A stretch of 64,000 nt of DNA from Escherichia phage iGC_PHA_EC001: the sequence record OR437326.1; one strand, 5' to 3'. Shown one piece after another: positions 81-25,610 of the stretch; positions within the stretch are counted from its first letter, which is position 1; every line of letters begins with the position of its first letter. The notes below the pieces were generated by a model. The model did no database searches. It was not told where the DNA came from and saw only the letters and a list, made by a program, of their open reading frames with translations. A program made the position numbers and the translations under genes.

Positions 81-881
81 TTATTTGTTTAAGTGGTCTT
101 CGACCATTTTAATAAAACCTTCATTGCTGAAGGCTGTTGCAGCTTTTTCTCGGTAAACAAAAACTCCACGATCTTCATAGAGAAGTGTTTCTTCGTAATT
201 AACTCCAGGGTTAACTACAACCATTTTTGTCCCGATGTTAAGAGCAGGAAAAAGCTCCCAGTTAAAATTGATAACTTGATTAGAGCAACCCACTACAATC
301 ACCATATCTTGAGCCGTCAAGCCGTCTAAGATGTGGTACATATCGTTATACAATGGGGCAGTTTCCCCAAAGAACACTACATTAGGCTTCACATACTTGT
401 AATCATCTACATCGATAGCAGCATAGCCAACATCTTTGATGATTCTATTGTCTACGATCACTTCAGGCAGGAAGCCGTGAACATGTAGAACATCTTCATG
501 AACAACACCCGCTTGTTCCAGAAGATCATCTACGTTTGTCGTGATGTTGATAACACGATCACAGCCGTACTCTTGAAACCATTCCGCGATCTGGTAATGC
601 GCAGCGTTAGGAGTTACACTATCCATCTCTACGCGACGTTTATTGTAGAAGTCATGAGTTTTACGGTAGAGGTTGTATCCCTCTGCATCTAATCCGCCAA
701 CAGCCCCAGGAACACACTGTTCTTGTTGGTATCCAGCACGGAAGTTGAAAATGTCACACACTTCAGAAAGGTCGTATTCATCCCACAAAGCTTTGCCACT
801 TTCTGTGTCAGTGCGGAAAGTACGAACACCGCTATCGGCGCTTAAGCCAGCGCCGCTGATCACTATTAATCGTCTTGGCAT
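81..881 (-). CDS. Sir2-family NAD-dependent deacetylase/ADP-ribosyltransferase-like protein
   Basis: N-terminal GAGLSADSGVRTFR resembles Sir2 NAD-binding motif (GAGIS..SGIP.FR); RBS GAGGAGG before ATG. Confidence 0.65.
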   Translation of the reverse strand: MPRRLIVISGAGLSADSGVRTFRTDTESGKALWDEYDLSEVCDIFNFRAGYQQEQCVPGAVGGLDAEGYNLYRKTHDFYNKRRVEMDSVTPNAAHYQIAEWFQEYGCDRVINITTNVDDLLEQAGVVHEDVLHVHGFLPEVIVDNRIIKDVGYAAIDVDDYKYVKPNVVFFGETAPLYNDMYHILDGLTAQDMVIVVGCSNQVINFNWELFPALNIGTKMVVVNPGVNYEETLLYEDRGVFVYREKAATAFSNEGFIKMVEDHLNK

Positions 882-1357
882 TCTTCCTCCTCATAATCTT
901 CATCATCCAAATCGTACACTTCGTCTTGAGAATAACTCACTTCAAAGTAAATATCAAACTCTGCAAACAAACGTAGAATGTTGGACATGCTGTAATAGTT
1001 ATCATAAGCTTCCTCTGCTTCATAGTAGAGGCGTAGCAAACGTTCAGCTTCTTCGTCTTCTACCCATTTATGATCAACATAAACAGAAGCGGCATAAATA
1101 TTGTAGGCTTGTTCTCGACTATCAGCAAGATTTCGGCTTAACAGTTCAGGGAAGTCTTTACCATTTACATTTAGTCTTCCGCATAACCACAAAGCAATAT
1201 CATGCCAATCTGCATCCTCTCCGCTGAAGCAGCTTGCGACTTCGCCAAACTTGGCATCGCCTAAGTCTCCGCTAATAGTGATCATGGTTGAACTATTGTA
1301 ACCACAAGTTTCGCAATTTGAACAACTGTTGTGCACATGAATTTCTACTTGAAACAT
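866..1357 (-). CDS. hypothetical acidic Cys-containing protein
   Basis: ORF track 866-1369; start moved to internal ATG (MFQVEIHV) because first ATG lies inside the GGGAGGAAAT RBS; very acidic C-terminus (DLDDEDYEEEECQDD), CxxC pair. Confidence 0.5.
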   Translation of the reverse strand: MFQVEIHVHNSCSNCETCGYNSSTMITISGDLGDAKFGEVASCFSGEDADWHDIALWLCGRLNVNGKDFPELLSRNLADSREQAYNIYAASVYVDHKWVEDEEAERLLRLYYEAEEAYDNYYSMSNILRLFAEFDIYFEVSYSQDEVYDLDDEDYEEEECQDD

Positions 1358-1377
1358 ATTTCCTCCCATAAAAGAAA

Positions 1378-1400
1378 AGCCCCCTGAAACAGGAGGCTTT
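1378..1400 (-). terminator. putative intrinsic terminator
   Basis: minus strand GCCTCCTGTTTCAGGGGGC hairpin followed by TTTTCTTTTAT, located between convergent-ordered genes 1416-2069 and 866-1357. Confidence 0.5.
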
Positions 1401-1415
1401 GTTCAGATTCTGGCA

Positions 1416-2069
1416 CTATACCAGACTTTGTAGGTATTTGTCAAGGGCTTCTTGATCACCTTGACAAACATAGCAACGGAAGTCTTGAGCCGAAGGTTGT
1501 TTATTTTCATCCCAGTCCCAATAAACATTACCCTTATAACGTGAACCAGGAAACTCAAAAGAGGCTATATGTGTAATGTATCCTGGGCCACCAGTGAAAT
1601 CACAGAATGAGAATTGGGGGTATGCCGCCTTTACTGCCTCAATAAACCAAGCTTTACGATCTAAGGCTTCATTGATGCTATACGCATGTCTCTCCATTTC
1701 TTCCCAAGTCTTCCAGACACTTCTCTCATCAGGAGAAAAGACAAGCCATTCTGGAAGGTAGAGAGTGTCATAGTAATCATCATATTCGATCTCGGAGGCG
1801 CACGAAGCTGACTCCTCCAGTTTTGAGTAATCAAAAGCAGAATATACCCACCAACCATCTTCCAGTAAGGCTTTGATAGGGACGAAGCCTTTATCAGCAT
1901 ATTGATCGAATTGTTTGACACGGTGGCTTGTGCAGTCTTCAAACTCACATTCTAAACGATATGCACCTTTTCGACGAGCCTCAAGACCGTGTGTACTGAA
2001 AATAACAACACTTCCTTCACCATCATTACGATCTACTTGATAAGCAACTACTGGTTTTGAATTTGACAT
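1416..2069 (-). CDS. hypothetical protein
   Basis: 217-aa ORF with AAGGAGAAATA RBS. Confidence 0.55.
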   Translation of the reverse strand: MSNSKPVVAYQVDRNDGEGSVVIFSTHGLEARRKGAYRLECEFEDCTSHRVKQFDQYADKGFVPIKALLEDGWWVYSAFDYSKLEESASCASEIEYDDYYDTLYLPEWLVFSPDERSVWKTWEEMERHAYSINEALDRKAWFIEAVKAAYPQFSFCDFTGGPGYITHIASFEFPGSRYKGNVYWDWDENKQPSAQDFRCYVCQGDQEALDKYLQSLV

Positions 2070-23241: not shown

Positions 23242-24201
23242 TTAGATTCCAATAATAGTTGCTGCTCGTTTATCTTTGGATCTGGTGTTTGCTCTACTAC
23301 GTGACAAACCTCCACAAGATTCACAACGAATGATATCGAAAGAACTTACCGCAGTGTGGTATTGCTTACCAGTAACAACGTGAACATGATCACTGCCGCA
23401 ACGAGAACAACGGACTTTCTCATCTGGGTAATAAGCGGATAAGTTAGGATGCTGTGGAATCCACGGAAGGATTTTCATATACAAATCACGGAGTGAAACA
23501 ACATCGCCATCATTGTAAATCTGCATACGTTCAAAAGCATCACGATCACCTTCACAACATGCTTTCCATAAAGGGAACCCCTCGTTATCCAGTTTTTCAC
23601 TTTCTGTTTCGAAATATGCTCCCATTTCTTTAAGGGAGTTGGAAGGAAGTGCAAATTGTTTCTTAGCTGCCTTCAATGTATCAACAACTACATAATTAGA
23701 AGGAGGAGCCATATCGTGATATGCAAATCGTTGGTTAATGTATGCACGGTCAAACTTATACCCGTTGTGTGCCACAACTACATCTGCCTCGTTCAGAAGG
23801 TTCCAAAGATCTTGGCAAAGCTCCCAATCATCTGTATGATCAATATCAAAAAGAGGATAAGAAGACAAGTTCTTACCTTCTACTTCACCTGTATACAAAT
23901 CAGCAGAAGAGTAAGATAACAAATAACCCCTACGAATTACCTGGTCTGGAGAAATGAAGGCTTTGAATCGACGGAAAGTATATGCAATCTCTGGTGCAGT
24001 TTCAACATCAATAATTTTAATAACTGGTTGTTTCTTTTTAACTGGCTCTTGTTTACTTGCACCGAAACGTGCAAGGAAATCATTTACTGTGCTTTTTCTT
24101 GTTGGACTACCTAAAACAATTGCTGCAATATTACGAGAAGACATACCCTCTGCACTCATACTAAGGATATCTGCTTTCTGCTCTTCTGTTAATCTGCTCA
24201 C
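23242..24201 (-). CDS. DnaQ-like (DEDD) 3'-5' exonuclease with N-terminal HTH and C-terminal Cys-rich zinc-binding region
   Basis: Exo I IIDVETAP, Exo II HNGYKFD, Exo III YNDGD; C-terminal CSRCGS...CESCGG; GTG start after AGGAGG RBS. Confidence 0.55.
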   Translation of the reverse strand: MSRLTEEQKADILSMSAEGMSSRNIAAIVLGSPTRKSTVNDFLARFGASKQEPVKKKQPVIKIIDVETAPEIAYTFRRFKAFISPDQVIRRGYLLSYSSADLYTGEVEGKNLSSYPLFDIDHTDDWELCQDLWNLLNEADVVVAHNGYKFDRAYINQRFAYHDMAPPSNYVVVDTLKAAKKQFALPSNSLKEMGAYFETESEKLDNEGFPLWKACCEGDRDAFERMQIYNDGDVVSLRDLYMKILPWIPQHPNLSAYYPDEKVRCSRCGSDHVHVVTGKQYHTAVSSFDIIRCESCGGLSRSRANTRSKDKRAATIIGI

Positions 24202-25316
24202 TCTGCCTCCTGTTGTGAGATGTATGACTGAAGCATACTCTCAAATGTTGTATCGTCATTATCCCAGCGTTTCATGTATACCAACTGGAAAATTGTTTCT
24301 ATCCATTCATCTGTTGTCATATGGACTTCTTCTCCATCCCAAGAAGTAAAATTAACACCATCTGGGAACCATGAGTAGTAAGTATCTTTAACTGTTTGGA
24401 AAAGTTCTGCTTGAGTTTTACAAGCTGAAAGAAGATTAAAACAAGTAATATCTCCGAACTTAATATCAAAATCTTGATAAGGTCGGATACTATCTGTTTT
24501 ATCCCCCATTAGCATCTGATATGCTAACCAGTAACTGCCCCAACCTTTAACTTCTTTCTTTTTACCTTTATCTACGATCCATATATCGCCAATAGACTCG
24601 TCAATAAGAATTATATCTGGATTTTTAAATACTCCATCCTCTTTGTAGAAATTAAAAAGGATACTAGGAGTATGTAAACTATCTTTATCTATAGACACTA
24701 CGATATAAGAAAATTTACCCGTCCTTTTATAATCTTTATAACCTTGGAAACCATACTTCTCTAACTCATCATCAGCTTCTATTACAGTAACAACATCACC
24801 ATTGTGGAACTCCACAAGATAATCTTTGGTTTCTGAAAGCTGAAGTGGTTTGATATCTAATCGTTCAGATTTATATTCTACAGGCATTTTGAAGGCGTGT
24901 CTGAAAGTTTTTCCTACGCCAATAACTCCGCAATATTTTTCTAAACGTAGATGTTTTAGAATACCTAAGACTTTTGTTTTAGCTGCTTGGAAGGTGTGTC
25001 CGATATCTTCTGGCGGGTATTGCTTATCAATGATTTCGAACTCTTCCTTTGTGAAGGGACGTTTGTTTTTGGAGGCTCTTTCTGCATTTGTATCTCCTAG
25101 CCAACCTCCAATTTTAGTCTTGCTTTTACCCCAAAACTCTGTCTTATTTTTAAATTCCTTTTGAGCACCTGAAGGGATGTGCTTCGCAATGATTGTTCTT
25201 TTCTCTAACGCAGATGCTGCTTGGAAAGCGATCTGATCATAATCAATTGCAGCTATTGTTTCTTCGTTGACATATAAATGAAGATCTTCAGGTTTAATTA
25301 AAATATAACCGCTAAT
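24198..25316 (-). CDS. FEN-family 5'-3' exonuclease / flap endonuclease (T4 RNase H, T5 D15-like); start codon unresolved
   Basis: EADD, DESIGD and LMGDKTDSIRPY blocks match FEN signature; reading frame is open for 147 codons upstream of first ATG (24887) with no ATG/GTG/TTG; candidate ATT start at 25314-25316 after GGGGGA. Confidence 0.5.
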   Translation of the reverse strand: MSGYILIKPEDLHLYVNEETIAAIDYDQIAFQAASALEKRTIIAKHIPSGAQKEFKNKTEFWGKSKTKIGGWLGDTNAERASKNKRPFTKEEFEIIDKQYPPEDIGHTFQAAKTKVLGILKHLRLEKYCGVIGVGKTFRHAFKMPVEYKSERLDIKPLQLSETKDYLVEFHNGDVVTVIEADDELEKYGFQGYKDYKRTGKFSYIVVSIDKDSLHTPSILFNFYKEDGVFKNPDIILIDESIGDIWIVDKGKKKEVKGWGSYWLAYQMLMGDKTDSIRPYQDFDIKFGDITCFNLLSACKTQAELFQTVKDTYYSWFPDGVNFTSWDGEEVHMTTDEWIETIFQLVYMKRWDNDDTTFESMLQSYISQQEAE

Positions 25317-25328
25317 ATTTCCCCCTAA

Positions 25329-25538
25329 TTATTCATCGTCATCCTCTGTTGAGAATGTTTTAGTATACGGACATTGACGACTTTTCGGGATTGCTATAAC
25401 TTCATCTTGGTTAGCGTTAGAATAGTAGCAATATTTTGTGTTGCCATTAACTTCAGAATCAGACAAGATTAAAGTAATTTGACCTGCTGCTACTGTGAAA
25501 CTAAAAGCTAAAAGAACGACTGTCAGAATCTTTTTCAT
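25329..25538 (-). CDS. small secreted/periplasmic protein with N-terminal signal peptide
   Basis: MKKILTVVLLAFSFTVAAGQ signal-like N-terminus, acidic C-terminus; RBS AGGAGGCG. Confidence 0.5.
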   Translation of the reverse strand: MKKILTVVLLAFSFTVAAGQITLILSDSEVNGNTKYCYYSNANQDEVIAIPKSRQCPYTKTFSTEDDDE

Positions 25539-25548
25539 AACGCCTCCT

Positions 25549-25577
25549 AAAAAGCCTACCTCATTAAGTAGGTAGGC
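25549..25577 (-). terminator. intrinsic terminator
   Basis: inverted repeat GCCTACC ... GGTAGGC followed on minus strand by TTTTT directly before RBS of 25329-25538. Confidence 0.55.
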
Positions 25578-25610
25578 ATAATATCATAACTAATCCCGCA
25601 AGTCAAGAAC

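Follow-up and report, generated by a model that had tools for sequence, protein, structure and literature searches.

A 64,000-nucleotide stretch of the genome of Escherichia phage iGC_PHA_EC001 (OR437326.1; the whole of this stretch is hereinafter the window) poses the question of where translation of a nuclease gene begins when the conserved N-terminal part of its frame offers none of the codons ATG, GTG and TTG. The gene lies on the minus strand and specifies a predicted exonuclease of the flap endonuclease (FEN) type. Based on the 5' ends of its relatives, we propose that this exonuclease very likely initiates at the ATT codon at 25316-25314, which gives a gene model of 25316..24198 (minus strand) encoding 372 amino acids and preceded by a Shine-Dalgarno (SD) sequence at 25326-25320; we infer AUU to be the codon actually used.

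A nuclease frame and its missing canonical start

The exonuclease frame runs without a stop from 25328 to the TGA at 24200-24198 and comprises 376 sense codons, the first ATG, GTG or TTG among which is the ATG at 24887-24885, preceded by 147 codons without any of the three. Upstream of it, on the same strand and in the same frame, lies a 69-codon open reading frame (ORF), which extends from the ATG at 25538 to the TAA at 25331-25329, begins with MKKILTVVLLAFSFTVAAGQ, has a signal-peptide-like N-terminus and belongs to PHROG 4641. The bases 3' of this single in-frame TAA read TTA GGG GGA AAT ATT AGC GGT TAT in the exonuclease frame, with GGGGGA at 25325-25320 ahead of the ATT, and the motifs EADD, DESIGD and GDKTDSIRPY are all found in the same frame. 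An earlier note, prepared from the letters of the window, had drawn attention to this locus, and its description of the open frame, the solitary TAA, the GGGGGA and the motifs proved correct at every coordinate. The features needed for what follows are these:

24198..25316, minus strand: full-length exonuclease coding sequence (CDS) as proposed here, ATT start, 372 sense codons plus TGA; PHROG 107
25314..25316, minus strand: proposed initiation codon ATT (AUU), placed by alignment with the near-cognate and canonical starts of relatives
25320..25326, minus strand: Shine-Dalgarno sequence AGGGGGA, with the G-run at 25325-25321 and a 4-base spacer AAAT before the ATT
25329..25331, minus strand: TAA of the upstream ORF, 12 bases 5' of the ATT
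25329..25538, minus strand: upstream 69-codon ORF
24888..25313, minus strand: codons 2-143, the coding 5' part that is unannotated in most public records, as judged by pN/pS, invariant columns and secondary structure
24885..24887, minus strand: internal ATG (Met144), the gene callers' start of a 229-aa product, with no SD upstream
24198..24201, minus strand: GTGA overlap of the exonuclease stop with the downstream GTG start, read from the sequence
25554..25606, minus strand: promoter-like site and hairpin from a consensus scan (pattern match only)

Taking ATG, GTG and TTG together as 4.9% of the codons in the window, the chance that the first 147 codons of a gene lack all three is ~6e-4 per gene at the window's codon usage, and over its ~65 genes roughly 0.04-0.05 start-less genes of this kind are expected. 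Internal runs devoid of the three codons occur in other genes of the window and reach 123 codons, and the exonuclease frame is unique in the 64 kb as a coding-strand ORF of at least 120 codons that has at least 40 codons before its canonical start. The 147-codon run is itself not conserved, with sporadic in-frame TTG or GTG codons in relatives; as read from the alignments, what has been conserved is that no canonical codon stands at the true N-terminus, rather than the long start-less run.

Coding character of the 5' part

We compared codons 2-143 with 17 relatives and obtained proportions of nonsynonymous differences (pN) of 0.09-0.39 and of synonymous differences (pS) of 0.65-0.90. Synonymous sites are saturated in most of these comparisons, and pN versus pS together with counts by codon position were used instead of the rate ratio dN/dS. 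Third codon positions take most of the differences; against the relative that we label L108, for instance, there are 16, 9 and 66 differences at codon positions 1, 2 and 3. The 3' part of the gene shows the same bias. Homology to other phage exonucleases in tblastn searches spans residues 1-376 of the open frame, with 77% identity in Justusliebigvirus, 37-42% in the rV5-like and PBES02-like phages and ~30% in PAK_P5 and ICP1; the orthologues of Vequintavirus (rV5-like), Certrevirus (PBES02-like) and the Iguana-like Klebsiella phages are 38-43% identical to the window protein. D25 (25244-25242), which lies in the start-less stretch, is the first residue that never varies among 44 aligned homologues; it is followed by the near-invariant D27 (25238-25236; at least 90% of the 44), and E180, D182, D183, D210, D212, D272 and D275 are likewise invariant. 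Judged by these patterns of substitution and conservation, purifying selection acts on the start-less 5' stretch, and this stretch is part of the enzyme, in keeping with the earlier note, which had placed the conserved N-terminal region there.

Position of the start codon

Relatives were gathered from IMG/VR, Logan, assemblies of the European Nucleotide Archive (ENA) and GenBank, and their 5' ends were read in frame. The sampling amounts to about 20 independent lineages. At one-residue indels (L014, L015, L025, L026 and L114-L116) an automated projection misplaced the start by one codon, and these cases were read by eye. The codon aligned to the ATT of the window is ATT, ATC, ATA or CTG in 19 of 19 distinct lineages, which are 48-87% identical to it:

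ATT, 7 lineages: the window group, L109, L012/L004, L110, L112, L113 and L114
ATC, 6 lineages: L108, L011/L024, L014, L025, L026 and L015
ATA, 4 lineages: L111, L115, L116 and L016
CTG, 2 lineages: L017 and L117

The set corresponds exactly to AUU, AUC, AUA and CUG, which are the best non-canonical starts measured in E. coli, at 1-2% of AUG (bioRxiv 10.1101/063800); AUU, AUC and AUA are also known as occasional bacterial starts that are discriminated against by IF3 (PMC5499595). Every sequence of the clade, down to ~48% identity, has an in-frame stop 0-11 codons 5' of the aligned codon and not one canonical start between the two, and the arrangement of GGRGGN, 3 nucleotides and the start codon is kept in all clade relatives. 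In L015 the frame opens exactly at the ATC, with an in-frame TAA immediately 5' of it (ggaggagTAA ATC GGT TAC), and translation there therefore cannot begin further upstream. At the aligned position in more distant genera stand TTG (Vequintavirus), GTG (the Iguana-like Klebsiella phages) and ATG (Certrevirus), and the N-terminal peptides M-G-Y-P-V-V, M-S-R-E-Y-P-L-I and I-S-G-Y-I-L-I are in register in the alignment. The earlier note had listed AUU initiation behind the GGGGGA as the first of several options and had suggested orthologous start-codon usage as a check; with near-cognates in the 19 lineages and TTG, GTG or ATG in the distant genera, that comparison favours the first option.

Pairing with the 3' end of 16S rRNA is consistent with this placement. 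The anti-SD duplex before the ATT has a free energy of -9.3 kcal/mol and belongs to the four strongest found in 1.47 kb; of the remaining three, two precede the starts of the two neighbouring genes and one is internal to the exonuclease gene (25112). The best duplex before the ATG at 24887, by contrast, reaches +0.4 kcal/mol. The spacing from SD to start is the same in the upstream ORF, where it reads GGAGG-CGTT-ATG (4 bases). The site thus shows what is looked for in a near-cognate start, namely that no canonical start fits the conserved N-terminus, that an SD lies at a proper distance and that the position is conserved among orthologues.

We accordingly envisage a scheme in which the strong SD AGGGGGA, its G-run 4 bases from the ATT, would position the ribosome, and the AUU at 25316-25314 would be read by the initiator tRNA as formylmethionine, probably with assistance from ribosomes that end 12 bases upstream at the TAA of the 69-codon ORF. 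The ATG at 24887 would then code for an ordinary internal methionine, and the weak start codon might keep synthesis of the nuclease low or render it sensitive to IF3.

Several points speak against initiation at this ATT. As ATT, ATC and ATA are all isoleucine codons, they would, taken alone, also suit a conserved internal isoleucine, and the argument for a start therefore rests on the in-frame stops 0-11 codons upstream, on the SD and on the CTG, TTG, GTG and ATG states. Three of the more distant lineages (L114-L116) have an in-frame ATG 9-10 codons downstream, a possible alternative start in those phages. With 3 bases between GGGGGA and the ATT, or 4 counted from the G-run, the spacing lies at the short end of the functional range. 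In reporters, near-cognates give only a few per cent of the AUG output, so that without help from coupling very little protein may be made. Finally, we found no proteomic or ribosome-profiling data on the exonuclease start in the literature.

Phage records and competing accounts

The region matches 64 phage records at no less than 95% identity, which represent the genus Phapecoctavirus (phAPEC8-like coliphages, Stephanstirmvirinae), to which the window also belongs, and the gene arrangement is the same in all 64. Over the 30 bases that surround the ATT, 54 of them are identical. Five of the ten that differ were read: four (L001, L003, L118 and L119) vary in the spacer upstream of the ATT, either with TAACTA for TAATTA or with six G for five, and never in the ATT, and the fifth (L120) is the same as the window around the ATT. 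The six-G run belongs to L118 (PP129558.1) and L119 (MT944117.1), genomes ~99% identical to the window, which has five G (25321-25325); it shifts the frame relation to the upstream ORF and leaves the ATT intact. Diverged relatives from independent metagenome and Sequence Read Archive assemblies share the same architecture. Among the matching records, those named after Campylobacter, Acinetobacter, Klebsiella and a 'Dompiswa phage' are 99% identical to coliphages over the region, and this agreement in sequence suggests host mislabelling or contamination.

The proximity of the upstream TAA invites accounts in which the 69-codon ORF takes part. Most close relatives likewise have this ORF ahead of the exonuclease gene; the two are probably transcribed together and may be translationally coupled. 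In a strict form of coupling, the AUU would be used by no ribosomes other than those that finish the 69-codon ORF and restart, with little input from de novo 30S binding and with the same start codon and the same product. A stop 12 bases before the ATT, and 1-12 bases before the start in relatives, is what coupled pairs display, and it persists behind different preceding genes (an HNH gene with its TAA one base before the CTG in L117, a methyltransferase gene in L114); moreover, reinitiation in E. coli uses the initiator tRNA and is IF3-sensitive (PMC2268962). However, a full-strength SD is present in every lineage and would be less needed were coupling the sole route, and close spacing of stop and start is common in tightly packed phage operons rather than specific to this gene. 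We regard such obligatory reinitiation as a real but lesser prospect; reinitiation after the TAA may take part, but only by adding to initiation at this same ATT. A fusion of the two ORFs into a product of ~445 aa, by readthrough of the TAA or by frameshifting, draws on their sharing a frame in the window with one TAA between them and on a 444-aa 'fusion' protein (P0005) in a public protein collection. The frames differ, however, in Justusliebigvirus and in the six-G Phapecoctavirus genomes (vB_EcoM_01 and PNJ1809-36), and the same-frame TAA of this genome is for that reason, by sequence comparison, an accident. L015 has two in-frame stops, TAG and TAA; the upstream genes of L114 and L117 are unrelated; and a secreted or membrane-anchored replication nuclease is biologically implausible. 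A programmed event would call for a conserved frame relation, and what we find is one that varies; readthrough, an option that the earlier note had entertained, and frameshifting are therefore excluded, and we give them scarcely any credence. P0005 itself derives from L107 (a contig of Logan SRR30397360), the DNA of which has TAG where the protein has Q, and was set aside as an artefact of a TAG-reassigned gene call.

Other accounts move the start or dispute the sequence. A start at one of the downstream near-cognates, the ATT of codon 5 (25304) or of codon 7 (25298), would be in frame and upstream of D25 and would leave the catalytic core complete. SD pairing within 20 bases of these codons is nevertheless weaker (-5.5 and -2.4 kcal/mol), the strong SD is 16-22 bases away, their counterparts in relatives are TTA, AAA, GAA or ACA, and they fall out of alignment with the ATG, TTG and GTG starts of the other genera, all of which makes such a start improbable. 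The 229-aa protein from the ATG at 24887 could be real and the 441 bases upstream an untranslated leader or decaying remnant, seeing that this is the first canonical start in the frame, that nearly all public records call the gene so and that an entry exists in UniProt/BFVD. Against it, the 143 upstream codons show purifying selection in comparison with relatives that are saturated at synonymous sites, they encode the invariant D25 as well as two core strands of the FEN fold, which is modelled with confidence, the homology of distant phage exonucleases spans the whole 372 residues, and the ATG lacks an SD; by the predicted structure, the 229-aa product would be an incomplete domain without two core strands and the first metal-binding aspartate, and we deem it very improbable. 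A sequencing or assembly error that removed a true ATG or GTG near 25310-25320, likewise raised in the earlier note, conflicts with the ATT bases common to 54 of 64 independent records, with variants that, where read, differ in the spacer alone, and with the same architecture in independent assemblies of diverged relatives. As the arrangement is present in all 64 records, an assembly error is therefore excluded, its probability being to our mind negligible.

Annotation in public records

Records of phAPEC8, vB_Ec-G1, ASO2A, ESCO5 and others annotate the exonuclease as the 229-aa ORF from the ATG at 24887; the ~440 bases before it carry no annotation or a spurious ORF of 40 aa. One such ORF is the 40-aa 'hypothetical protein' G377_gp266 of phAPEC8, found in some other records as well, which corresponds to 24965-25087 (minus strand) of the window, lies out of frame within the 5' part and is almost certainly spurious. 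Records of Justusliebigvirus, including L004 (KU522583.1 ECGD1, 697..1731), start at an internal GTG that corresponds to codon 33 (motif DYDQ-V-AFQ) and so remove both the invariant D25 and D27. The phiWec179 annotation begins at codon 12, a TTG that occurs there by chance. UniProt and BFVD hold the truncated version, the 229-aa entry of BFVD covering just 61% of our model.

The exception among the records examined is ESCO13 (KX552041.2 / NC_047770.1), in which the CDS AQM50955.1, a 'putative exonuclease', starts at the ATT and has a ribosome-binding-site feature just upstream; its protein and ATT start are identical to those of the window. This annotation is a database entry without supporting analysis in the accompanying paper (PMC5374246), and we found no publication that discusses the ATT start of this exonuclease. 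Truncated versions have spread to UniProt, BFVD and structure and family resources, and gene callers restricted to ATG, GTG and TTG will repeat the truncation.

FEN-type fold and family identity

The earlier note had called the gene FEN-like, and the predicted structure agrees. The model of the 372-residue protein has a predicted local distance difference test score (pLDDT) of 96 and a predicted template-modelling score (pTM) of 0.89, and Foldseek matches it with probability 1.0 to T5 FEN and ExoIX. Core strand beta1 (residues 16-25) and the core strand at 127-137 sit upstream of Met144. Searches with the protein and two family profiles gave no significant Pfam, NCBIfam or PDB sequence match; PHROG 107 is the single family matched. 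With respect to PF02739 (5_3_exonuc_N), the window protein has no match at the gathering score, and distant relatives score a sub-threshold 24-28 bits against the cut-off of 34.3. In view of the lack of a sequence-model match, membership of the FEN family therefore rests on the predicted fold, by which the exonuclease is a FEN-superfamily 5'-3' exonuclease or flap endonuclease with a PIN-like nuclease domain plus H3TH.

The model contains the FEN-type fold together with clusters of carboxylates that would bind the catalytic metals (the invariant D25, E180, D182, D183, D210, D212, D272 and D275), and the spacing of the clusters agrees with T5 FEN; residue-by-residue equivalence of the carboxylates to those of T5 FEN is probable on this basis, and 5'-3' exonuclease or flap endonuclease activity is predicted from the model. 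Known 5' nucleases of this type include T5 D15, T4 RNase H, E. coli ExoIX (Xni), M. smegmatis FenA and the 5'-nuclease domain of Pol I (PF02739/PF01367). The window exonuclease differs from them in that its sequence identity to them is only 12-20%, that it has ~100 more residues and carries insertions, among them residues 39-100, which separate the first core strand from the next helix, and that we identified no obvious counterpart of T5 D68.

Comparison with known AUU-type genes

Initiation at codons of the AUU class is already known, and the mechanism is not new. As of a 2016 preprint, infC and pcnB were the only confirmed AUU-type genes in E. coli (10.1101/063800), and homologues of infC alternate between AUU and AUC (PMC5499595). 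Like infC (which encodes IF3) and pcnB, the exonuclease gene has a near-cognate one base from AUG with a suitably spaced SD ahead of it, and its orthologues keep such a codon at their N-terminus. Unlike them, it encodes a phage nuclease and not a translation factor, its start is proposed from sequence comparison, it gives no sign of an autoregulatory loop, and its start lies 12 bases after an upstream stop, so that coupling may contribute. The exonucleases of Vequintavirus, Certrevirus and the Iguana-like phages are of the same family and share with that of the window the register of the N-terminal peptide and the short SD spacing; they have the canonical starts TTG, ATG and GTG, respectively, and are therefore annotated at full length. 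What appears to be new is that one homologous site holds AUU, AUC, AUA or CUG in all lineages of the subfamily and UUG, GUG or AUG in neighbouring genera; the scale of the misannotation appears to be new as well.

The third base of the start codon has turned over repeatedly among U, C and A, never G, while synonymous sites became saturated, and this pattern suggests that a weak start codon is maintained by selection. A tentative extension, which we offer as no better than possible, is that a whole clade of large coliphage-like myoviruses, the Stephanstirmvirinae and their uncultured relatives, keeps the FEN nuclease on the weakest usable starts under selection, as a throttle or an IF3-sensitive switch comparable to infC; if this is true, the dose of nuclease made during infection would depend on the condition of the host's translation machinery. 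Two IMG/VR contigs of closely related uncultured phages at ~50% identity to the window, L016 and L017, have ATA and CTG, respectively, at this site. The two codons differ by two bases, and the one path between them by single steps through a usable start passes via ATG; the pair hints, as far as such a path can be read from present-day sequences, at a strong start that arose for a time and then gave way to a weak one again. The locus adds a well-supported natural case of the AUU class in an E. coli phage to the few confirmed genes of that class, and the comparative series AUU, AUC, AUA, CUG, UUG, GUG and AUG at one site lends itself to a test of start-strength tuning in a potentially toxic nuclease.

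Neighbouring signals

At the 3' end, the TGA of the exonuclease (24200-24198) overlaps in the sequence GTGA with the GTG start (24201-24199) of the downstream gene, which encodes a 319-aa 3'-5' exonuclease of the RNase_H_2 type. A strong SD of this gene, AACAGGAGGC, is located at 24214, inside the 3' end of the FEN-type gene, and the GTGA overlap with its SD is, as far as its layout tells, a classic translational coupling arrangement.

Upstream of the block formed by the 69-codon ORF, the FEN-type exonuclease and the 3'-5' exonuclease there is a promoter-like site, TTGACT-17-TATTAT with an extended -10 TG (25554-25606, minus strand; a pattern match from the consensus scan). Directly after the -10 hexamer come a GC-rich hairpin and a T-run, and then the SD and ATG of the 69-codon ORF; the hairpin resembles a terminator and falls roughly where the presumed transcript would begin. 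The next hairpin of this kind on the minus strand is at 23236-23218, again as a pattern match only. Within the FEN-type gene, a strong internal SD-like sequence, AUUGGAGGUU (25103-25112, minus strand; -10.0 kcal/mol), coincides with the conserved GGW motif of the exonuclease; no in-frame start codon was noted just downstream of it, and it is probably incidental.

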